DNA of 57,379 nucleotides from an uncultured Candidatus Saccharibacteria bacterium (lineage in GTDB: Bacteria > Patescibacteriota > Minisyncoccia > UBA6257 > 2-01-FULL-56-20), in NCBI GenBank assembly GCA_964361095.1, contig CAYHZA010000001.1:67456-124834 (forward strand). Reading direction: 5' to 3'. The first letter of the stretch is position 1; each line of letters opens with the position of its first letter. Under the pieces are notes generated by a model. It made no database searches. It was not told where the DNA came from and was given only the letters and a program-made list of their open reading frames with translations. Positions 38,923-50,398 of this stretch are shown one piece after another. The translations under genes were made by a program, and so were the position numbers.

Positions 38923-38971
38923 TTTTAAAACGCAGGCCCCTTTGTTTTTGCCTAAAACGCTAAAAATTGAT
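38923..38971. repeat. direct repeat DR-left (copy of the tRNA promoter region)
   Basis: TTTTAAAACGCAGGCCCCTTTGTTTTTGCCTAAAACGCTAAAAATTGAT matches 40263-40312 except for 3 substitutions and a 1-nt indel. Confidence 0.85.
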
Positions 38972-40262: not shown

Positions 40263-40312
40263 TTTTAAAAACGTAGGTCCCTTTGTTTTTGCCTAAAACG
40301 CTAAAAGTTGAT
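40263..40312. repeat. direct repeat DR-right (contains the intact tRNA promoter)
   Basis: See 38923-38971. Confidence 0.85.
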
Positions 40313-40446: not shown

Positions 40447-40517
40447 TGGGGGATCGTCTAATGGTAGGACATCGCCCTCTGGAGGCGAGTATCTTGGTTC
40501 GAATCCAGGTCCCCCAG
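40447..40517 (+). tRNA. tRNA-Gln (anticodon CUG)
   Basis: Folded by hand. Acceptor TGGGGGA/TCCCCCA, D arm GTCT-AATGGTA-GGAC, anticodon arm TCGCC-CTCTGGA-GGCGA (CTG at positions 34-36, T33, G37), variable loop GTAT, T arm CTTGG-TTCGAAT-CCAGG, discriminator G. CCA is not encoded. Confidence 0.85.
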
Positions 40518-40573
40518 CTTTGTTCAGGAAAGGCAGTTGGATTTTGCAACGCGAAGCATTTGCAAAATTAACT

Positions 40574-40607
40574 GTCCCGAGGAGTCTCTCGAGCGACGAG
40601 GGGCTAC
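40574..40607. repeat. member of the GTCCCGAGG-N11-CGACGAGGGGCTAC intergenic repeat family
   Basis: Other members lie at 40693-40726, 42223-42265 (longer spacer) and 41459-41487 (degenerate). Confidence 0.7.
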
Positions 40608-40625
40608 GTTGATATGAGTAGTTAT

Positions 40626-40646
40626 GTTCGAATCCAGGTCCCGCAG
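40626..40646 (+). pseudogene. isolated tRNA 3' fragment (T-loop + acceptor 3' strand)
   Basis: GTTCGAATCCAGGTCCCGCAG shares its first 17 nt with the tRNA-Gln 3' end but has no matching T-stem 5' strand. Its acceptor strand TCCCGCA is complementary to TGCGGGA at 40329-40335. Confidence 0.55.
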
Positions 40647-40888
40647 CCGAACTGAAAATCACCCCGAAGAATTGAGGGGTTGATTTTCGTTCGTCCCGAG
40701 GAGTTTTCCAAGCGACGAGGGGCTACGTCTAACCCCCGAAAGGGGTTTTTGTATTTCAAGCGCTTAGTAAAATTGCAATTTTACTAAGTACAATATTAAA
40801 GATTAATTAAAGCAACCCCGAGGGCTACATTATCGAGGCTTAAATTTTCAATCATCCCGAGGGCCCCGTAATTTGGTATATTTAAGCT

Positions 40889-41167
40889 ATGCCAAAAGAC
40901 CCCAAAGACCTGCGGATCATAACCCAAATAGCCCAGTTCATTCTTCTTGTGCCGGTTATGCTAGTCCTGTTTCTTTTACTATTCACTGGCTATAGTCAAA
41001 TTTTCATCGACCAAGATCGTGACTGTATAATCTATGACCGATTCCCACCGGAAGCTGAAAGAAAAGCGGCGATTGAGGCATTTCAACGAAATACCGTCGA
41101 GGGGTTAGTAAAAATTGACGAGATTATTGCTAAATACCCGCCGATCATAAAGTGCCCGAAATTATAA
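40889..41167 (+). CDS. small single-pass membrane protein, copy A
   Basis: 92 aa with a TM helix IAQFILLVPVMLVLFLLLF. A duplicate lies at 45570..45848. Confidence 0.6.
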   Translation: MPKDPKDLRIITQIAQFILLVPVMLVLFLLLFTGYSQIFIDQDRDCIIYDRFPPEAERKAAIEAFQRNTVEGLVKIDEIIAKYPPIIKCPKL

Positions 41168-41293
41168 CTGGAATCTGCAACGAACCCATCTGTTCGCTAA
41201 TTTTTCTCCAATTTACAGTTCCAAGTGTTCCGAGGCGTTTTGCGCCGAGGGGCTATTTTGATTTATTCCCCGTAACGTTCAGTTTTCTGCCAG

Positions 41294-41322
41294 TGGAATT
41301 TTATTAAAAAACGTGGTATAAT
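41294..41322 (+). promoter_or_regulatory. promoter cassette copy L1 (extended -10)
   Basis: TGGAAT, 17 nt, then TATAAT preceded by TGG. It is embedded in the conserved string CCAGTGGAATTTTATTAAAAAACGTGGTATAAT. Confidence 0.6.
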
Positions 41323-41595
41323 GTACACGAAATAAAATTCTCAGGCCTCACAGCCGATTAGATTTTCTTAGCGAAGTATGAGCTTAGAAAATCAATCGTC
41401 CCGAACGAATGTGAGGGATACAGTGCATGCCGAGCTTGTGAGGTTTGAATTTTCAATCATCCCGAGGAGGGTAGAGCCGACGAGGGACTTCCTCGTGATA
41501 GGCCATTCGGCTCTGAGAGCCTCAGGCTCGATGAGTTATCCTGCTCGAGACGCATTGATTAACAAAATTTTCAAAAGGGATATAATGAAACCGTT

Positions 41596-42177: not shown

Positions 42178-42399
42178 ATTTGAGTACTGGGTGCTCGAGA
42201 CGAATCGTTTTGGTTTCGAGCGGTCCCGAGTGAATCCGCCGGTTGGCGGACGACGAGGGGCCTACATTATCCCTGCTTACACCGCTGGTGGAATTTTACC
42301 AAAAAACATTGTTATACTTCCTTTAGAACCTATAGAGCTTACAAATTAAGGAGGTGGATAGTAGATATCCTCGATCAGGAAACCGGACGCGAGCAGCTC

Positions 42400-42862: not shown

Positions 42863-42901
42863 TGGGTCTGTGATTTTGTGACATTTACTCGCTTGGCATC
42901 G

Positions 42902-42930
42902 TTGAATTTCCGTAAAAAACGTGGTATAAT
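42902..42930 (+). promoter_or_regulatory. promoter cassette copy L2
   Basis: TTGAAT, 17 nt, then TATAAT with an upstream TGG. It shares AAAAAACGTGGTATAATGTA..CGAAATAAAA with L1. Confidence 0.6.
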
Positions 42931-42948
42931 GTATGCGAAATAAAAACT

Positions 42949-43494
42949 ATGACAATCTATGTATTTATAGACGCTTCAAATGTTTGGAATGCGATCAAGT
43001 CGGTAAAAAAGTTCATTGAATACAAAACTCTTAAAGATTATTTTAGAAAAAAATTTAACGCAGGCAAGGTTGAAATTTTTTATTATGATGCTTACCCAAA
43101 AGCAGGAACAAGAGATTATGACTTGGATGGAAAGCATAGATTTTTTACGTATCTTAAGAAAGGGCTCGGTTTTACTGTAAGAAAAAAAGAATTAAAAAGA
43201 ATCTCTGTTATTGGCGAGAGTGGAGAATCTATCGTAGAAAAAGGAAATATGGATGTGGAAATAACGATTGATGCTATGCACAACATCCAGAAATATAACG
43301 TAGCTATCTTTTTTAGCGGCGATGCTGATTTTTTAGCGCTCGTGAATTATTTGAAAAATGCCGGCAAAAAGGTCTACATTTTTTCTTCAAAAGGTAATAT
43401 TTCTCACGAACTAAAAACTGGCGGGGATGGTTATTATGAGTTAAAAGATATAAATGAATTTTGGGGTAAAGATTTAAAACATCGCGAGAAATAA
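42949..43494 (+). CDS. NYN-domain (LabA/DUF88-like, PIN-fold) putative RNase
   Basis: 181 aa. IYVFIDASNVW..., GNMDVEITIDAM and FFSGDADFLALVNYLKNAGKKVYIFS carry the NYN acidic residues. Confidence 0.75.
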   Translation: MTIYVFIDASNVWNAIKSVKKFIEYKTLKDYFRKKFNAGKVEIFYYDAYPKAGTRDYDLDGKHRFFTYLKKGLGFTVRKKELKRISVIGESGESIVEKGNMDVEITIDAMHNIQKYNVAIFFSGDADFLALVNYLKNAGKKVYIFSSKGNISHELKTGGDGYYELKDINEFWGKDLKHREK

Positions 43495-43666
43495 ATAATA
43501 CATAAACGAAAACCACCCTCAATTAAGAGAGTGGCCCTGGGATGTATAACCCTAACGGTTCTATGGATAGAACCGAAAGACCTTATTAGTATATGCGAGC
43601 CGTCGCATAAGTCAATAGTTATCCACAAGCAATATTGAACCCCCGAAAGGGGTTTTCGCATTTCAA
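43235..43666 (+). repeat. 432-bp segmental duplication, copy A (NYN 3' half + downstream tail)
   Basis: Near-identical to 45101-45532 at a constant offset of 1866 bp. Confidence 0.9.
43638..43656 (+). terminator. short rho-independent terminator recurring at cassette ends
   Basis: Hairpin aacccc-cgaaa-ggggtt plus TT. Copies lie at 40731-40750 and 45504-45522, and each is followed by ..ATTTCAA. Confidence 0.45.
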
Positions 43667-43742
43667 GCGTGCAGAAACACTTGTGTTTTGCGCCGAAGGG
43701 CTATTTTGATTTACCCCCCCGTGACGTTTAATTCCCTACCAG

Positions 43743-43771
43743 TGGAATTTTATTAAAAAACGTGGTATAAT
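43743..43771 (+). promoter_or_regulatory. promoter cassette copy L3
   Basis: Carries the same CCAGTGGAATTTTATTAAAAAACGTGGTATAAT string as L1 and L4. Confidence 0.6.
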
Positions 43772-43925
43772 ATACAAAAAGTTCGACTCTCGGGTCCAAT
43801 ACGATTAGCGAACTTTTGAAATAAATTTATGAATAAGAAATCATCAAATAAATGGGATCAGTGTTTAATCGACAAACGAGATTTGGCTAATAAAATCCTT
43901 GCTCAAATGAAAAGAATATAAAAAT

Positions 43926-44747
43926 ATGGATATAACTTTTTACAATATTTATGAAAAATCCTCAGAGATTTTTAACGGGCATACCATTAACCTAAAAAAG
44001 TGTGGTTGGTGCGATCCGTGGACGATGGGCTTGGTTTGCCTTAAAGCAATTGAATATAAGGATAGCCCTGATAAAAAGCTCATACTTCCGGACGATCAGG
44101 ATGTCGTTGCTTACTTGAAGCGCATGCACCTCGATTGGTTTTTAGAAGAACTGACATATCACGAGTTCCTCAAGCTGTTGGCGGAAAAAGCGATAGTTGA
44201 GAGAGAAAATTTGAACATTCACGAAATTATGCACTGCCAATTTCGCGATGATTTCGGAGCGCGGCTGTCATCGAGAATTAGGATGATGTTTAGAAACTTT
44301 GGTATGAATGCAGATGATGAGAGTAGGGCGACGGCATTGGTCGGAGAGTTAGGGAACAATGTTTTTGATCACAACGAGGGAGCGTGGCCTACAAATGTGC
44401 GTGGTGCAATTATCTTGGGTCAGCACAATCCAAAGAAAAAACAGATTGAAGTTGTAGTCGCAGATCCAGGAATAGGTTTTCGTGGTTCATTGAAAGTGTT
44501 AGATCCGTCTCTTACGAGCGACATAGAAGCAATTAAGCTTGGTCTTAGCGGTGTAACAGGAAGAGTTGATGAGCGTCGTGGTAATGGGTTAAGAGTGATT
44601 CAGGACTGGACAATCAATAAGTTTGATGGTATTGTAAAAATCCATTCGGGAAGCGGTTTAGTTGTTGTAGACAAGGATGGCCAGAAGCCACAAACCGTTT
44701 TTCCTGTCATAGGAACTTTAGCTTCATTCGTGGTAAGATATAAATAA
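43926..44747 (+). CDS. GHKL-superfamily (SpoIIAB/RsbW-like HATPase_c) ATP-binding protein with a unique N-terminal domain
   Basis: 273 aa with N-box ELGNNVFDH, G1 box ADPGIGF and G2 box RRGNGL. The N-terminal ~130 aa has no recognisable motif. Confidence 0.7.
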   Translation: MDITFYNIYEKSSEIFNGHTINLKKCGWCDPWTMGLVCLKAIEYKDSPDKKLILPDDQDVVAYLKRMHLDWFLEELTYHEFLKLLAEKAIVERENLNIHEIMHCQFRDDFGARLSSRIRMMFRNFGMNADDESRATALVGELGNNVFDHNEGAWPTNVRGAIILGQHNPKKKQIEVVVADPGIGFRGSLKVLDPSLTSDIEAIKLGLSGVTGRVDERRGNGLRVIQDWTINKFDGIVKIHSGSGLVVVDKDGQKPQTVFPVIGTLASFVVRYK

Positions 44748-44761
44748 CTTTAGCCACCTCT

Positions 44762-45028
44762 ATGGTCATACAAATATCCAAATTTAACAGTGTTTTGAAC
44801 GGGAGGCCTGCTGCAAAGGAGGCTGCTTTGCGTATCCAGCAGATTGTTAATGGATCGGCGGAAAAAGAAGATGTTGTATTGGACTTCTCCGGTGTTGAAG
44901 TTTTAACCCCGTCTTATGCGGACGAGTTATTAAAAGCGTTGAAAGACAAGTATGGCTCGGAAAAAGTTAAGATTGTGAATACTGCTCCGTCTGTATCGGA
45001 AACGATACACGCGATTAGCAATACCTAA
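44762..45028 (+). CDS. STAS-like (DUF4325) small protein
   Basis: 88 aa. ...VVLDFSGVEVLTPSYADELL is the typical DUF4325/STAS-like core. It starts 14 nt after the ATPase gene. Confidence 0.65.
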   Translation: MVIQISKFNSVLNGRPAAKEAALRIQQIVNGSAEKEDVVLDFSGVEVLTPSYADELLKALKDKYGSEKVKIVNTAPSVSETIHAISNT

Positions 45029-45100
45029 ACTCTTAAGTTCTTAGCGACTTGGGGTGTATTTCAAGCGTGCAGAGACACTTGTGTTTTTTGCGTACCTTCA

Positions 45101-45360
45101 TAGAAAAAGGGAATATGGATGTGGAAATAACGATTGATGCGATGCACAACATCCAGAAATATAACGCAGCCATCTTTTTTAGTGGCGATGCTGATTTTCT
45201 GGCGCTCGTGAATTATTTGAAAAATGCCGGCAAAAAGGTCTACATTTTTTCTTCAAAAGGTAATATTTCTCACGAACTAAAAACTGGCGGGGATGGTTAT
45301 TATGAGTTAAAAGATATAAATGAATTTTGGGGTAAAGATTTAAAACATCGCGAGAAATAA
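45101..45360 (+). pseudogene. 5'-truncated duplicate of the NYN gene
   Basis: Encodes only the C-terminal ~85 aa (EKGNMDVEITIDAM...KHREK) of 42949..43494, with one V-to-A change. The N-terminal catalytic half is missing. Confidence 0.8.
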
Positions 45361-45569
45361 ATAATACATAAACGAAAACCACCCTCAATTAAGAGAGTGG
45401 CCCTGGGATGTATAACCCTAACGGTTCTATGGATAGAACCGAAAGACCTTATTAGTATATGCGAGCCGTCGCATAAGTCAATAGTTATCCACAAGCAACA
45501 TTGAACCCTCGAAAGGGGTTTTCACATTTCAATCATCCCGAGGGCCCCGTAATTTGGTATATTTAAGCT

Positions 45570-45848
45570 ATGCCAAAAGACCCCAAAGACCTGCGGATCA
45601 TAACCCAAATAGCCCAGTTCATTCTTCTTGTGCCGGTTATGCTAGTCCTGTTTCTTTTACTATTCACTGGCTATAGTCAAATTTTCATCGACCAAGATCG
45701 TGACTGTATAATCTATGACCGATTCCCACCGGAAGCTGAAAGAAAAGCGGCGATTGAGGCATTTCAACGAAATACCGTCGAGGGGTTAGTAAAAATTGAC
45801 GAGATTATTGCTAAATACCCGCCGATCATAAAGTGCCCGAAATCATAA
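45570..45848 (+). CDS. small single-pass membrane protein, copy B
   Basis: 92 aa, identical to copy A except for the last residue (S instead of L). Confidence 0.6.
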   Translation: MPKDPKDLRIITQIAQFILLVPVMLVLFLLLFTGYSQIFIDQDRDCIIYDRFPPEAERKAAIEAFQRNTVEGLVKIDEIIAKYPPIIKCPKS

Positions 45849-45974
45849 CCGGAATCTGCAACGAACCCATCTGTTCGCTAATTTTTCTCCAATTTACAGT
45901 TCTAAGTGTTCCGAGGCGTTTTGCGCCGAAGGGCTATTTTGATTTATCCTCCGTGACGTTTAGTTTTCTACCAG

Positions 45975-46003
45975 TGGAATTTTATTAAAAAACGTGGTAT
46001 AAT
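45975..46003 (+). promoter_or_regulatory. promoter cassette copy L4
   Basis: Same string as L1 and L3. The leader up to the ATG at 46061 is collinear with the L3 leader. Confidence 0.6.
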
Positions 46004-46060
46004 ATACAAAAAGTTTGATTCTCGAGCCCCATACAATTAGTGAGCTTTTGAAATAAATTT

Positions 46061-49000
46061 ATGGAAAACATTTTTGAAAAATACATTCACTCTATTTCCT
46101 CTAAATTCTCTCACGAAGAGACAAGTGAAATGGGGTATCGAACAGATTTTGAAATTCTCCTAAAGGGCATTTTTGAATCAATCAATGTTAGGCGCATCGA
46201 TCATGACGCGAGGGCGAAGCAAGGAAATAAACCCGATTTTGTCGTGCTTAATCACGATGTGCCGATTTTGTATATTGAGGCGAAAGATATCGGCGTATCT
46301 TTAGATAAAGTTGAGAAGTCGGAACAGATGGCCAGATATTACGGGTATGCAAATTTAGTTCTTACAGACTATGTAGAATTTCGTTTTTATAGAAACGGTC
46401 TTCATTATGAAGATCCGATAAAAATAGCGAATTACGATACAAAGAATCGAACGATTGCACCTATTCCGGAAAATTATGAGCATGTTGCTAAAACACTCAT
46501 TGATTTCGCACAATCACACAAAGAACCGATACGGTCAGGAAAACACCTTGCAAAAATTATGGGAGGAAAGGCTCAAAGAATCCGAGATAATGCGCGACAA
46601 TTTCTTGCCACAGAATCAGACAAAAATTCCGAACTCGTCAGAATATATGAGACAATCAAGAAACTTCTTGTCCACGATCTAACACACGAATCCTTTGCAG
46701 ATATGTACGCACAGACGCTCGTTTATGGTCTTTTTATCGCTCGTTATTATGATAATACAGAAAAAGATTTTTCACGTCGGGAAGCAATTGATCTTATTCC
46801 GGCTTCAAATCCATTTTTGGGACATTTTTTTGACCACATTGCTGGGCGAAATTTTGAGAAACGGCTCGGGTATATTGTGGATGAACTGTGTGAGGTTTTT
46901 TCTCACGCTAATGTTCAAGAACTCATGCAGGAGTATTTCAAGGATGATTTATGGGGTAAAACTCATATGGGCCCAGATCCAGTAATTCATTTCTATGAAG
47001 ATTTTTTGAAAGAATATGACGATGTCTTGCGTAAAAAAATGGGTGCTTACTATACGCCCCTACCTGTGGTGCAGTTTATTGTGCGTTCCGTTGATCATCT
47101 ACTTGAAAAAGAATTCGGGCTTGTAGCCGGTTTAGCCGACACTTCAAAGACAGCGGCTGGTGTCCATCGTGTCCAAATTCTTGATCCGGCTGTAGGTACG
47201 GGTACATTCATAAGCGATGTTATAGGGAAAATCTACACACGAATAAAGAAAGGTGGACAGGAAGGCCGTTGGCCAGCATATGTGCATAATGATTTGTTAC
47301 CACGACTGCATGGTTTTGAACTTATGATGGCACCGTATACGATAGCTCATCTAAAATTAAGTATGGCGTTTAAGAAAACGGGTTTTTGGAATTTCCATCG
47401 CCGGCTTGGCATTTATCTTACAAACTCTCTCGAAGAAAGCGTCACCCAGAAAGGCTTGTTTAGTGGTTTTGGCTTTGCCGAAAGTATTGCCGAGGAATCC
47501 AAAGAAGCATCAGTTATAAAGAACAAAACGCCGATTATGGTTGTTATCGGCAATCCGCCGTATAGCGTTAGTTCTTCAAATAAAGGTGAGTGGATACAAA
47601 ATCTTATCAAGGACTACAAGAAAGGCCTTGGCGAGCGCAAGATCAACCTCGATGATGACTACATAAAATTCATCCGCTTCGCCGAACACTTTATAGAAAA
47701 AAACGGAAGTGGTATCGTGGCGATGATTACGAACAACTCATTCATAGACGGCATTACCCATCGCCAGATGAGAAGGCATCTGCTTGAGACATTTGATGAC
47801 ATTTATATTCTTGACCTCCACGGTAGTTCCAAGAAGAAAGAAAAGGCGCCGGACGGAGGCAAGGATGAGAATGTGTTTGATATTCAACAGGGCGTTTCCA
47901 TTTCCATATTCATGCGCAAAACAGGCGAGAAAAAAGGCCTTGGCGCTGTTCATCACGCCGAGTTATATGGTAAGAGAGAGGATAAATTCAGGGTACTTAA
48001 CGAAAACGGTATGCAAAATGTTAATTGGGAAAAGCTCAATTACTCCGAGCCGTATTATTTCTTTGTGCCAAAAGATTTTGGATCGGAAGAAGAATATAAA
48101 AAAGGATTCAAAATTGATGAGCTTTTCCCGCACTGTAATTCGGGAATTCAGACAAAACGTGATGATATAGTAATTCAATTTACTGCAGAAGAAATCGAAA
48201 AAGTTACTAATGATTTTCAGAATTTTACAGAACATCAAATACGAGAAAAATATCAATTACCAGAAGATGGGCGAGATTGGAAAATAAAATGGGCTCAAGA
48301 TGACTTAAGAAAGAACTTTAGTATAGAACCAATTCAGTATCGTCCTTTTGATGTCCGCTATACCGCATATACCGGGAATTCAAAAGGTTTTATAGCTTAT
48401 CCGAGAGAAAAAACCAATGTGAATATAGTTAATAAAGAAAATATCGCTTTGCTTTCTAGTCGTACTATTCCAGCAAATCAATCATTTGATAGATCCCTCA
48501 TAACTAAAAATATTGCAGATATTCATGCCGCAAGTGATCAGACATATGTTTTCCCACTTTGGATTTATGAGAAAGGGAAAATGGGTGCATCGGGGACTAT
48601 TGAATTTGAACGACAGCCAAACCTTCAATTGTCTATTGCAAGAAAAATAGCAGAATGTGTGGGGATGGATTATTATCCAATCGCAGAACATGAGACTATT
48701 CCGATAGACAAGCGTCTTATTCCCGAAGATATTTTTGATTATATCTATGCCGTTTTATACTCGCCGAGCTATCGTGAAAAATATAAGGAATTTCTAAAAA
48801 TTGATTTCCCGTGTGTGCCGTACCCTAAAGACGCAAAAAGTTTCAAACAACTTGTCGCGCTTGGCGCCGAACTGTGTTCACTCCACCTTCTCGAATCACT
48901 AAAGGTAAATCAATTCATCACGACATACCCTGTTGCTGGATCAAATATCGTCGAGAAGCCAATCTACAAAGATGGCAAGGTGTTTATTAATAAAAACCAG

Positions 49001-49183
49001 TATTTCGGCAATACTCCCGAGTTAGCATGGAATTTTTACATCGGCGGTTACCAGCCCGCCCAAAAGTGGCTCAAAGACCGCAAAGACCGTACCCTTACCA
49101 ACACCGACATTGAGCATTATCAAAAAATTATTGTGGCGATAGTGGAAACGGAGAGAATCATGAGAGAAATAGATAAATGTTGA
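46061..49183 (+). CDS. fused type IIG / ISP-like restriction-modification enzyme (N-terminal PD-ExK nuclease, gamma-class N6-adenine MTase, C-terminal specificity domain)
   Basis: 1040 aa. PDFVV...ILYIEAKD (D...ExK), motif I ILDPAVGTGTF, motif IV GNPPYS. C-terminal IFDYIYAVLYSPSYREKYKEFLKIDFPCVPYP and GGYQPAQKWLKDRK. Confidence 0.8.
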   Translation: MENIFEKYIHSISSKFSHEETSEMGYRTDFEILLKGIFESINVRRIDHDARAKQGNKPDFVVLNHDVPILYIEAKDIGVSLDKVEKSEQMARYYGYANLVLTDYVEFRFYRNGLHYEDPIKIANYDTKNRTIAPIPENYEHVAKTLIDFAQSHKEPIRSGKHLAKIMGGKAQRIRDNARQFLATESDKNSELVRIYETIKKLLVHDLTHESFADMYAQTLVYGLFIARYYDNTEKDFSRREAIDLIPASNPFLGHFFDHIAGRNFEKRLGYIVDELCEVFSHANVQELMQEYFKDDLWGKTHMGPDPVIHFYEDFLKEYDDVLRKKMGAYYTPLPVVQFIVRSVDHLLEKEFGLVAGLADTSKTAAGVHRVQILDPAVGTGTFISDVIGKIYTRIKKGGQEGRWPAYVHNDLLPRLHGFELMMAPYTIAHLKLSMAFKKTGFWNFHRRLGIYLTNSLEESVTQKGLFSGFGFAESIAEESKEASVIKNKTPIMVVIGNPPYSVSSSNKGEWIQNLIKDYKKGLGERKINLDDDYIKFIRFAEHFIEKNGSGIVAMITNNSFIDGITHRQMRRHLLETFDDIYILDLHGSSKKKEKAPDGGKDENVFDIQQGVSISIFMRKTGEKKGLGAVHHAELYGKREDKFRVLNENGMQNVNWEKLNYSEPYYFFVPKDFGSEEEYKKGFKIDELFPHCNSGIQTKRDDIVIQFTAEEIEKVTNDFQNFTEHQIREKYQLPEDGRDWKIKWAQDDLRKNFSIEPIQYRPFDVRYTAYTGNSKGFIAYPREKTNVNIVNKENIALLSSRTIPANQSFDRSLITKNIADIHAASDQTYVFPLWIYEKGKMGASGTIEFERQPNLQLSIARKIAECVGMDYYPIAEHETIPIDKRLIPEDIFDYIYAVLYSPSYREKYKEFLKIDFPCVPYPKDAKSFKQLVALGAELCSLHLLESLKVNQFITTYPVAGSNIVEKPIYKDGKVFINKNQYFGNTPELAWNFYIGGYQPAQKWLKDRKDRTLTNTDIEHYQKIIVAIVETERIMREIDKC

Positions 49184-49206: not shown

Positions 49207-49557
49207 ATGAGTAATTATCCTAGAGGTTCAGAATGGAAAAAGTGGGATTTGCATGTTCACAGCCCTGCTTCACGTGGTTTTAGTGGGACATGGGATCAAT
49301 TTGAAACGCAGTTGAAAAACGGAGATTGTGAAGTCATAGGTATAAATGACTATTTTTCTGTTGCAGGATATAAAAAAATTAAGGAAAAAATTTCAGCGGG
49401 GACTTTAGATATTGGCGACAAGAAAATATTGCCCGTTGTTGAATTTAGAATGCGGGATGTTTTAAAAAACAGACAAACTGGTACTAGCGGTACTAATATA
49501 AATTTTCATGTAACCAGGGTTCAGAAGTTTTATAATTTCAAAAAGATTGCCACATAG
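49207..49557 (+). pseudogene. truncated PHP-domain N-terminus of a PHP + ATPase (TrlF-like) gene
   Basis: 116 aa. GSEWKKWDLHVHSPAS, IGINDY, LPVVEFR and NINFHV follow the PHP pattern. The frame then ends abruptly where full-length relatives continue for several hundred residues. Confidence 0.55.
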
Positions 49558-49558
49558 T

Positions 49559-50398
49559 ATGAAAACAATATTTTTAGGTCTTAAGTTACTAGTCTCTTTG
49601 GTAATCATCGAATTTAGGAAGCCTCCTTATTTGCGTAGTAAACCGATTAGTTTAAAAAGATTAGTAATGGGACCCCTAATATTGTCACGTTTTATTAAAG
49701 TGACGAAGCACTTTATTCACTTTGTGACTACACAAAAACAACAAGAAGAAATAATATACTGGTTTTTCCAGATGAGCAGTCTAATCGAAAAGGGCTTTGA
49801 TGATAAAGATAATTCTGTAATACTAACACCAGAAAACTTCCCCGATATTATAATGCTCAAGAATATCGACTATAAAGATGCCCTCGTTGGTGAACTCACA
49901 GATATAATTCGTCATATCAAAAAACTTACATCGAGTAATAATTATGATAACTTCGAAAGTAATATCATAAAAACTTGGCTGACCCATAAAGTGAGGGACG
50001 TTAAACAAGCAGGTGACAAAACAATTTCTCTTGATGATGCATTGAGATCCGCTGAGGATAGGGGAGGTTTCTATTTTCTTGCGCTTGTATATTTGCTTAA
50101 TCCGACAAATTTAGATAAAAACTCGGAGCGTCTAGTGCGTTTAAGTGGAGCCTGGTTTCAGATTATAGATGATTACGATGACCGAAAAAAAGACGTTGGT
50201 AACCGAAGCACTCCATTTACGGTTCCATCAAATAATTCTCATAAAGAAATGCGCAAAAAATATATGGCAAAGTATCAAAAACAAATTCAAACTATAACCT
50301 CTTCTCGAATCCATCCGCTTATTATATTTTTTCGTGGTCTTGCTGGTTTAGTTACTATAAAACCCATAATCCTTGGCGAAAAATCTGATTGGCATTAA
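49559..50398 (+). CDS. hypothetical protein with polyprenyl-synthase-like aspartate-rich motif
   Basis: 279 aa from ATG 49559. N-terminal hydrophobic helix. WFQIIDDYDDRKKDVGN resembles the second FQ..DD..D motif of trans-prenyltransferases. There is a weaker SSLIEKGFDDKD about 120 aa upstream. Very AT-rich. Confidence 0.4.
   Translation: MKTIFLGLKLLVSLVIIEFRKPPYLRSKPISLKRLVMGPLILSRFIKVTKHFIHFVTTQKQQEEIIYWFFQMSSLIEKGFDDKDNSVILTPENFPDIIMLKNIDYKDALVGELTDIIRHIKKLTSSNNYDNFESNIIKTWLTHKVRDVKQAGDKTISLDDALRSAEDRGGFYFLALVYLLNPTNLDKNSERLVRLSGAWFQIIDDYDDRKKDVGNRSTPFTVPSNNSHKEMRKKYMAKYQKQIQTITSSRIHPLIIFFRGLAGLVTIKPIILGEKSDWH

Follow-up and report, generated by a model that had tools for sequence, protein, structure and literature searches.

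Within a 57,379-nucleotide stretch of contig CAYHZA010000001.1 from an uncultured Candidatus Saccharibacteria bacterium (the whole stretch is referred to below as the window), two adjacent genes, here called K and S, code for a GHKL-type kinase and a small STAS-like protein. Judged by sequence comparison, this pair belongs to the CapK/CapS-VapK/VapS family, since K aligns with VapK over both of its domains and VapS is itself a DUF4325 protein, the class to which S belongs. K-S is a minimal, stripped-down form of that family, a bare kinase-STAS core without an output part. We think it probable that the pair is a self-contained, mobile two-gene signalling unit of this family, carried as cargo in an island of gene cassettes beside a tRNA-Gln gene. 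The genes on which the argument turns are the following:

43926 to 44747, forward strand: K gene, 273 aa, STAS-like domain plus GHKL kinase, homologue of the VapK/CapK family
44762 to 45028, forward strand: S gene, 88 aa, DUF4325 STAS-only protein, putative phospho-substrate of K
42949 to 43494, forward strand: full-length NYN/LabA-type PIN-fold RNase gene, 181 aa (Pfam NYN 2e-20, PADLOC NYN 7.8e-11)
45049 to 45360, forward strand: truncated NYN open reading frame (ORF), the C-terminal 87 codons of NYN, with NYN homology from 45098

These four reading frames, with S starting 14 nt after the end of K, are as described in the original prediction, which had been made from the letters of the sequence alone.

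Two systems define the family. CapK (helix-turn-helix (HTH)-STAS-GHKL) becomes active through single-stranded DNA (ssDNA) and phosphorylates CapS (STAS-winged helix-turn-helix (wHTH)) at a conserved serine, which de-represses downstream immune operons (Chambers et al., EMBO J 2026, PMC13373217). VapK (STAS-GHKL) phosphorylates VapS, a STAS protein with a short C-terminal helix that is needed to inhibit the PIN toxin VapC, and VapC is thereby released; VapKSC defends E. coli against a phage, and mutation of VapK F54 abolished defence (PMC13373217). An aromatic residue at the STAS/GHKL interface, F54 in VapK and W68 in CapK, has been proposed as the ssDNA binder (PMC13373217). With VapK taken from the AlphaFold 3 model file of that paper, and VapS and CapS from its PDB files, hhalign matches the K family to E. 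coli VapK at 90.6% (E 1.3e-6) over 218 columns, K residues 21-266 against VapK 47-284, so that both domains are covered. In this alignment W28 of K stands opposite VapK F54, and P31 opposite P57; position 28 is W or F in most of 40 K homologues, the exceptions being L and S. VapS matches Pfam DUF4325 (1.3e-17). The original prediction knew of no characterised defence system with this composition. In fact K is a VapK homologue and VapS a DUF4325 protein, and the sensor-switch idea put forward for the pair is already published for the CapK/CapS-VapK/VapS family; a match of the pair to a known system was among the outcomes by which the original prediction would count as refuted. With a VapS fragment as query, tblastn against plasmids yielded no usable operon, the one find being a Leptotrichia plasmid with a degraded remnant of DUF4325.

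The GHKL assignment of K is secure, because its N-box (E141, N144, N145, D148, H149), G1 box (D180, G182, G184) and G2 box (R218, G219, G221, L222) are invariant in the 40 homologues and because the AlphaFold2 (AF2) model of the protein (pLDDT 87, pTM 0.89) has Foldseek matches to Hsp90/GyrB/SpoIIAB folds, the GHKL domain matching SpoIIAB 1til_E with probability 0.99. The ATP-binding motifs of K are intact, and a P31-W32 motif in the N-terminal half is likewise invariant in these homologues. The N-terminal ~130 residues had been called unique, and this needs correcting: on fold matches and homology transfer they read as a divergent STAS-like domain. The alignment with VapK extends through them, the K homologue of a Gordonia phage carries a Pfam STAS domain N-terminal to HATPase_c, and the first 128 residues modelled alone (pLDDT 85) gave six Foldseek matches, five of them to STAS or anti-sigma-antagonist structures. 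Pfam finds no HTH on K, and secondary structure in the AF2 model begins directly with the STAS-like domain. Against PDB chains, neither the single K sequence nor the 40-sequence profile returned anything meaningful.

S is a DUF4325 ('STAS-like') protein by Pfam (5.1e-10), as had been proposed. Members of its family are 82-99 aa long and share a near-invariant motif, DF..VE.LTPSxADE, in which T49 and S51 are themselves near-invariant; the serine ahead of an aromatic residue is retained in distant relatives too. Searching the PDB with the single S sequence returned only designed repeat proteins, through a low-complexity match, and these were discarded; the best genuine match of the S-family profile is VapS (9z7o). 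When the S family is aligned by hhalign with CapS, S51 falls opposite the phospho-serine S54, and S51 is therefore the likely phospho-site on sequence grounds, with T49 as an alternative. Residue 70 of S matches VapS residue 68 and S ends near VapS residue 86, and the C-terminal inhibitory region (VapS residues 94-116) is absent from the 88-aa protein in this alignment. Nor does Pfam find a wHTH or any other DNA-binding domain on S, DUF4325 being its only match, and S therefore cannot act as a DNA-binding repressor. Of the database checks that had been suggested for the locus, those for NYN and DUF4325 returned matches. No dedicated model in PADLOC v2 or NCBIfam matches K or S.

The view of K-S as a free-standing unit draws on its occurrence in other genomes. 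Close homologues of K form 198 clusters; those listed are nearly all full-length, most of 265-288 aa, and every organism name given by the source is of Patescibacteria type. A profile search extends to 2721 cluster representatives, many of them two-domain proteins of 270-310 aa. S directly follows K in every locus whose contig continues. We took a census of 231 neighbouring ORFs at 23 non-redundant K-S loci, from which only descriptive counts are given: no third gene recurs among them, the sole recurring neighbours being genes for YchF/Obg-type GTPases (6 of 23 loci). The pairs occur among R-M (restriction-modification) subunits, GmrSD, SIR2, AAA_15 ATPase, PIN, PIN_3, HEPN/MNT and Fic genes and a diversity-generating retroelement (DGR), PIN and PIN_3 genes being only sporadic, and serine and tyrosine recombinases and integrases are also found around them.

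Similar pairs stand in other settings too, those of temperate phages at accessory positions. Streptococcus prophages carry a K-like gene and a small DUF4325 ORF after the lysis genes, next to paratox; a Francisella prophage codes for a 293-aa protein followed by a DUF4325 protein; and in Gordonia phage Phishy a K-like gene and a 75-aa ORF, the latter without a Pfam match, lie between tail genes and integrase. A pattern-based scan of contigs for K-S yielded just 19 loci, 14 of them from a distant Gemmatimonadota clade, and thus little context. In that clade (L014-L027, L057-L076), a K protein of 295 aa overlaps with a 195-aa S-like protein that has a weak wHTH-like C-terminus, and synteny is conserved, with lepA-side genes on one side and a Cys/Met-metabolism gene plus ftsE/ftsX on the other. 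This pair has the look of a CapKS-like regulator that is passed on vertically among housekeeping genes. A further locus, L084 (1266-3444), couples a distant pair, with a K of 323 aa and an S of 104 aa, to a 57-aa ORF and a nuclease of the SNase family that has an N-terminal hydrophobic segment; the genes overlap or nearly abut in operon-like fashion and are followed by Fic, an NYN of the window's subfamily and Phd/ParE. It is perhaps a variant of K-S whose output is a different nuclease. K and S also give weak, co-linear matches to one PADLOC DrmA model, PDLC02567 (positions 77-252 and 314-386 of 1750, E ~2e-4), which hints that some DISARM DrmA proteins may carry a fused GHKL-DUF4325 segment at the N-terminus. 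Because of the prophage, Gemmatimonadota, L084 and DrmA-model variants taken together, we regard the kinase-STAS core as modular and fitted with different outputs, the window's subfamily being the bare core.

By analogy with the characterised members, ssDNA arising from DNA damage or phage replication would switch K on, being bound in the STAS/GHKL cleft where W28 aligns with VapK F54. Active K would then phosphorylate S at the start of helix alpha-2, at S51 or alternatively T49, and phosphorylation would alter the binding partner of S. Because S has neither a wHTH nor the VapC-inhibiting tail, and the operon has no nuclease, the output would be an effector acting in trans, or the pair would act through K itself.

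Several observations weigh against this reading. The Pfam HATPase_c_2 match of K (0.0023, 18.4 bits) lies under the cutoff of 27.4, though the GHKL boxes named in the original prediction are upheld by the homologues and the model. The Foldseek matches of the K N-terminal domain are weak (E 4.5-9.8, TM 0.2-0.44), and hhalign finds no similarity between that domain and the DUF4325 profile; the two STAS-like domains of the pair are therefore not close paralogues. Alignment of the S family with VapS is out of register by one residue relative to VapS S48. Several K-S loci sit amid plain housekeeping genes, so a defence-island context is not universal. Finally, an NYN gene lies within ~2 kb of K-S in four of the collected loci, namely the window, L036 and L039 (three of the 23 census loci) and the short contig L072, and of three randomly sampled NYN loci one (L084) contains another K-S pair, of a different K-S subfamily. 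The proximity of NYN and K-S exceeds a naive chance expectation and may reflect a looser functional link.

A rival reading, in the line of the original prediction, is a three-part analogue of VapKSC, in which the NYN RNase is the effector, S restrains it, and K phosphorylates S upon infection and so releases it; the NYN fragment, if co-transcribed, might then serve as adaptor or decoy. VapKSC works in just this way with a PIN nuclease (PMC13373217), NYN is classed as PIN-like (Matelska et al., NAR 2017, PMC5499597), the co-occurrences at the window, L036, L039, L072 and L084 are as given above, and the NYN fragment stands directly downstream of S, no terminator being found between them in the terminator scan (45029-45100), such that it may be co-transcribed with K-S. 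Other observations speak against it. NYN has a separate promoter, and a hairpin at 43640-43660, the only terminator-like element ahead of K-S, separates it from the pair; the scan did not call this element, which was recognised from its analogy to 40731-40747. No two NYN/K-S co-occurrences agree in distance, orientation and intervening genes, and four NYN subfamilies are involved, those at L036, L037, L039 and L072 being other than the window's. No NYN is found within 5 kb in 20 of the 23 census loci. Homologues of NYN form at least 1855 clusters (E<=1e-10) against the 198 of K, about ten times as many, and NYN usually occurs alone. S lacks the C-terminal helix that VapS requires against VapC, and NYN has a candidate RNA regulator of its own. 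We conclude that NYN is not a conserved partner of K-S, and we consider the three-part scheme unlikely. Of the original proposal, a sensor switch controlling a nuclease, the kinase/STAS switch stands, given that the family controls a PIN-fold nuclease or an immune operon (PMC13373217); the connection to NYN is not supported.

The presence of NYN next to K-S can be accounted for differently. The full copy spans Pfam profile positions 2-142, including the FIDASN motif with the N-terminal catalytic Asp, and the top 120 NYN clusters are 77-92% identical across many Patescibacteria classes and lineages. Away from K-S, the gene occurs after ftsA-ftsZ, among glycosyltransferases and beside variable methyltransferases. 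On contigs with an identical NYN protein the upstream genes are constant (HTH-RadC, or an 87-aa ORF), and the downstream genes vary (N6_N4 methyltransferases, HsdM and others). NYN and its RNA thus give the impression of a constant border to a cargo hotspot, or else of belonging to a mobile element, and occasional adjacency to K-S is therefore explained without functional coupling. L072 (636-1361) offers a second example of K/NYN gene rearrangement: a K fragment truncated at its 5' end (residues ~156-191), which extends as far as the end of the contig, lies 58 nt from the start of a divergently oriented NYN gene of another subfamily.

The RNA in question is a candidate small RNA (sRNA) convergent with NYN, for which a covariance model was built and which occurs at the following positions:

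43508 to 43599, reverse strand: candidate sRNA gene, copy 1, convergent with NYN (covariance model match 101.8 bits; promoter and terminator scan)
45374 to 45465, reverse strand: candidate sRNA gene, copy 2 (covariance model match 101.8 bits; promoter-like 45481-45454, terminator-like 45404-45375)
L082 5579-5669, L083 5588-5676 and L084 5568-5658, reverse strand: candidate sRNA elsewhere (covariance model)
L085 2088-2178, L095 2095-2186 and L102 659-745, reverse strand: candidate sRNA elsewhere (covariance model)

About 100 nt 3' of the NYN stop codon are conserved in all loci of the window's NYN subfamily, and matches to the covariance model occur only after that subfamily. Copy 1 has a promoter-like TTGACT-16-TATACT at 43615-43588 and a terminator hairpin with a U-run at 43538-43509; across the eight distinct sequences the -35/-10 hexamers (TTGAC[T/A], 16-18 nt, TATA[C/T]T) are kept in seven, while the spacer sequence is entirely different. 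The alignment of these eight sequences forms two helices with 21 pairs, with 99.4% of the cells paired and compensatory changes at four of the pairs, values reached by none of 500 shuffles. Its G-U pairs are valid on the minus strand only, and the linker GGGUUAUACAUCC is invariant. The model match is ~90 nt long, the distance from predicted start to terminator is ~75 nt, and the RNA ends ~15 nt from the NYN stop codon. No Rfam family matches it. The candidate RNA may regulate NYN or serve as its antitoxin, and the two possibly constitute a self-standing unit resembling a toxin-antitoxin (TA) system. Convergent or adjacent antitoxin RNAs are found in type I and type III TA loci such as bsrG/SR4 and ToxIN; type I toxins are usually small membrane peptides, and ToxI is a tandem repeat RNA. 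The present locus is like these in combining an RNase-family gene with a small, independently promoted, structured RNA directed towards its 3' end. It differs from ToxIN in that the candidate sRNA is no tandem repeat, and both toxicity of NYN and its neutralisation by the RNA are purely hypothetical here.

A looser coupling can be imagined in which effector-less K-S is a free-standing immune or stress switch acting in trans on a host factor, in Patescibacteria the NYN RNase with its convergent sRNA. We regard this as speculative, and would give it slightly less credence than the three-part scheme. Were it true, it would amount to a three-layer system of ssDNA-sensing kinase, STAS adaptor and RNA-restrained NYN nuclease, loosely linked because NYN flanks the hotspot, and NYN plus sRNA would be an undescribed RNase/RNA toxin-antitoxin-like unit marking a defence-cargo hotspot in genomes of the candidate phyla radiation (CPR).

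Could the pair instead be a housekeeping partner switch of the SpoIIAB/SpoIIAA or RsbW/RsbV type, with K keeping a sigma factor or another regulator bound until unphosphorylated S sets it free? The match of the GHKL domain to SpoIIAB, the resemblance of S and of the K N-terminal domain to anti-sigma antagonists, and the conserved housekeeping synteny of the distant Gemmatimonadota relatives (lepA ... ftsE/ftsX) would all fit. Yet not one Patescibacterial K-S pair adjoins a gene for a sigma factor or for a PP2C phosphatase, and neither turned up in the 5 kb around the pair, be it in the window or at homologous loci with annotation; the family is patchy, with only about 200 clusters, and occupies variable positions alongside recombinases, R-M and TA genes and inside prophages; and K has the extra STAS domain of CapK and VapK, which anti-sigma kinases lack. 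We find a role of this kind improbable.

We return to K-S as a mobile pair, and to the island that carries it. From 40.8 to 46.1 kb the window holds cassettes with ORF X, with genes for an S51 peptidase and for a membrane protein, with NYN, with K-S and with the gene for a Type ISP R-M enzyme. Four or five of these unrelated cassettes are headed by one and the same promoter module, which is absent from the rest of the window and from other loci. The module (…GTGGAATTTTATTAAAAAACGTGGTATAAT…) occurs at 41293-41337, 42901-42945, 43742-43786 and 45974-46018, with a weaker copy at 42288-42332. Its 16-mer AAAAACGTGGTATAAT has four copies in the island and none elsewhere in the 57 kb, where 0.08 would be expected, and one of them belongs to the module ahead of K-S, in line with the original claim that the pair is independently promoted. 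The relevant features are:

42901 to 42945, forward strand: promoter module copy driving NYN, TTGAAT-17-TGGTATAAT (repeat family D4, exact 16-mer)
43685 to 43831, forward strand: promoter, 5' untranslated region (UTR) and ATG module of the K-S cassette (blastn; repeat families D3-D5)
43829 to 43921, forward strand: leader ORF of 30 aa in the interval from promoter to K (tblastn match only in a contig of the same organism)
46061 to 49183, forward strand: Type ISP/IIG fused R-M enzyme, 1040 aa, the next cargo cassette

The NYN promoter scores 10 out of 12 in the promoter scan and has an extended -10. The module of the K-S cassette is 90% identical to that ahead of the R-M gene (45918-46063), promoter, 5'UTR and start-codon context being common to both, and the 30-aa leader ORF is probably a remnant of this borrowed R-M start region. 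The leader ORF, the island promoter and the junction modules were considered as parts of the system and rejected, being absent from every other locus checked. That K-S governs transcription of the Type ISP R-M cassette, or of other cassettes with the island promoter, in the manner of CapK/CapS is the least credible reading, and a very improbable one: CapK/CapS do control operons downstream of them and, in about 20% of cases, adjoin R-M systems (PMC13373217), the two cassettes do have the 90% identical module, and at L007 the pair comes directly 3' of the M and S genes of a Type I system, but neither the 88-aa S nor K has a DNA-binding domain or HTH, the promoter module is specific to this genome, and the downstream gene is not conserved. 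In the window the R-M gene lies 1 kb downstream of K-S and has its own promoter, and the NYN fragment and ORF X stand between the two.

How K-S came to its present position may be read from direct repeats, which we mapped by blastn self-comparison of the island together with a listing of repeat families:

40846 to 41350, forward strand: repeat R1, copy 1, ORF X (92 aa, 40889-41167) plus promoter module (blastn)
45527 to 46031, forward strand: repeat R1, copy 2, ORF X (45570-45848) plus the promoter module before the R-M gene (blastn)
43232 to 43666, forward strand: repeat R2, copy 1, NYN 3' half, sRNA gene, terminator and ATTTCAA (equivalent to 45098-45532)
45058 to 45087, forward strand: junction repeat of 30 nt, ATTTCAAGCGTGCAGAGACACTTGTGTTTT, equivalent to 43660-43689 (repeat D6, blastn)

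R1 is 505 nt long at 96.2% identity; ORF X is identical in both copies, and all 19 differences fall within the last 190 nt, leaving the promoter part ~10% divergent. R2, the NYN duplication, which was found at essentially the coordinates claimed for it, measures 435 nt at 97.5% identity with 11 differences, eight of them in the first 104 nt (six synonymous) and followed by 297 identical nt. A third repeat, R3 (43685-43831 equivalent to 45918-46063), comprises the promoter, 5'UTR and ATG common to K-S and the R-M gene. R1, R2 and R3 are nested and their divergence is mosaic, and the 30-nt junction repeat, lying upstream of the truncated NYN, shows where the recombination joint is. The simplest account is recurrent homologous recombination between cassette boundaries, and Campbell-type integration of donor DNA carrying K-S beside a diverged NYN 3' segment fits the pattern well. 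As proposed, the truncated NYN lacks the N-terminal catalytic Asp region, its Pfam NYN match (7.8e-14) being confined to profile positions 72-142. A recombination scar is the best reading of it, given the mosaic nested repeats and the mostly synonymous differences in the NYN fragment. Homologous recombination would thus have placed K-S after NYN, the donor DNA probably carrying the diverged NYN 3' segment, with a dead NYN half and a second copy of the candidate sRNA gene, which R2 duplicated along with it, as by-products. NYN and its convergent sRNA would be an independent, very widespread unit that flanks variable R-M cargo in other genomes. The same K-S/NYN arrangement is present on five contigs with an identical NYN protein (one displayed, four listed as similar) and is therefore no assembly artefact. 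The names of samples and of homologues suggest a Patescibacterium from groundwater.

The surroundings are those of a defence/TA island, much as first described, with HicB-like and SocA/Panacea TA genes, the Type ISP/IIG R-M enzyme and an N-terminal fragment of a TrlF-family gene (Pfam, PADLOC, NCBIfam). The R-M enzyme has Type_ISP_C (Pfam, 7.6e-82), Eco57I and N6_Mtase domains and matches PADLOC REase_MTase_IIG at 3.8e-281. Next to it, the gene for a TrlF-family AAA-like ATPase is broken (49207-50398), a 116-aa ORF covering positions 1-94 of the 944-position NCBIfam model, and 3' of this fragment a 283-aa ORF in a different frame has a weak PbeA-like match. The left edge of the cassette island is formed by a tRNA gene:

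40447 to 40518, forward strand: tRNA-Gln(CTG) (ARAGORN; Rfam 59 bits)

A partial copy of its 3' end (40625-40647, 23 nt, two mismatches) lies 107 nt downstream of the tRNA and has the appearance of an att-like scar left by an earlier integration. Among the island ORFs scanned against Pfam (roughly 38.5-52.6 kb) there is no integrase gene. A 49-nt direct repeat (92%; 38923-38971 and 40264-40312) brackets a block in which the HicB-like gene and the SocA/Panacea antitoxin-domain gene are accompanied by a 127-aa ORF, which suggests that this TA block is itself an insertion. Short motifs specific to the island come back at cassette boundaries, TCCCGAGG-N-CGACGAGGGGCTA at 40575-40606, 40694-40725 and 41460-41490, and a terminator hairpin with ATTTCAA behind it at 40742-40759, 43649-43666 and 45515-45532. 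There is also a perfect 26-nt palindrome at 40763-40788. The boundary motifs may be recombination substrates. An integron-like or CRISPR-like nature of TCCCGAGG...CGAGGGGCTA and GGGGTTTT..ATTTCAA was considered and set aside, there being three copies of each, in the island only and without an integrase.

CapK/CapS and VapKSC were described only in 2026, and the definition of each included an evident output, be it a PIN toxin or a repressor domain. The locus in the window, its ~200 Patescibacterial relatives and the prophage copies indicate that the core of kinase and STAS protein also moves about bare, as a unit of two genes. This raises the question of the target of a phosphorylated STAS-only protein, and it adds CPR bacteria, about whose immune repertoire little is known, to the hosts of the family. 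The cassette island, with unrelated cargo genes under one promoter module beside a tRNA-Gln gene, and the NYN/sRNA unit are leads on how ultra-small genomes organise and exchange defence genes.

Set against known systems, K resembles VapK in its STAS plus GHKL architecture, in lacking an HTH and in the aromatic W28 that matches F54, and S resembles VapS as a DUF4325 partner with Ser/Thr at the start of helix alpha-2, in the same tight K-then-S order. The differences are that VapKSC has a VapC/PIN gene in the operon, where Pfam finds none for K-S; that VapS has the C-terminal inhibitory region, which S lacks; that K is only ~24% identical to VapK, and its hosts are Patescibacteria; and that the nuclease beside K-S is an NYN, which is separately promoted and whose place beside the pair is not conserved. 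With CapK/CapS the pair shares the kinase-STAS substrate logic, the match of CapS S54 by S51 and a location next to R-M and other immune genes; in contrast, CapK has an N-terminal HTH and CapS a wHTH, neither of which K and S possess, and K-S has no conserved downstream operon. A PIN.4 VapC-like group has been reported as 'transcriptionally coupled to DUF4325 genes' (PMC5499597), probably an early sighting of VapKSC. Here too a DUF4325 protein is linked to a nuclease of the PIN-like superfamily, but the PIN-like protein of the window is an NYN that is neither transcriptionally coupled to the pair nor conserved beside it. The GHKL-containing Shedu variant VcSduA (PMC12137116) was also compared and rejected, its architecture being unrelated to K-S. 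SpoIIAB/SpoIIAA and RsbW/RsbV likewise combine a GHKL serine kinase with a single-domain STAS substrate, and there are structural matches to 1til chains E and B; K differs in its additional STAS-like domain, and whereas those pairs form a conserved developmental or stress operon, K-S is mobile, patchy and sometimes prophage-borne. The value of the locus lies in a form of the family without an effector and in the occurrence of this form in prophages and CPR bacteria, with the candidate small RNA next to NYN, the cargo hotspot and the cassette island with its shared promoter as by-products.

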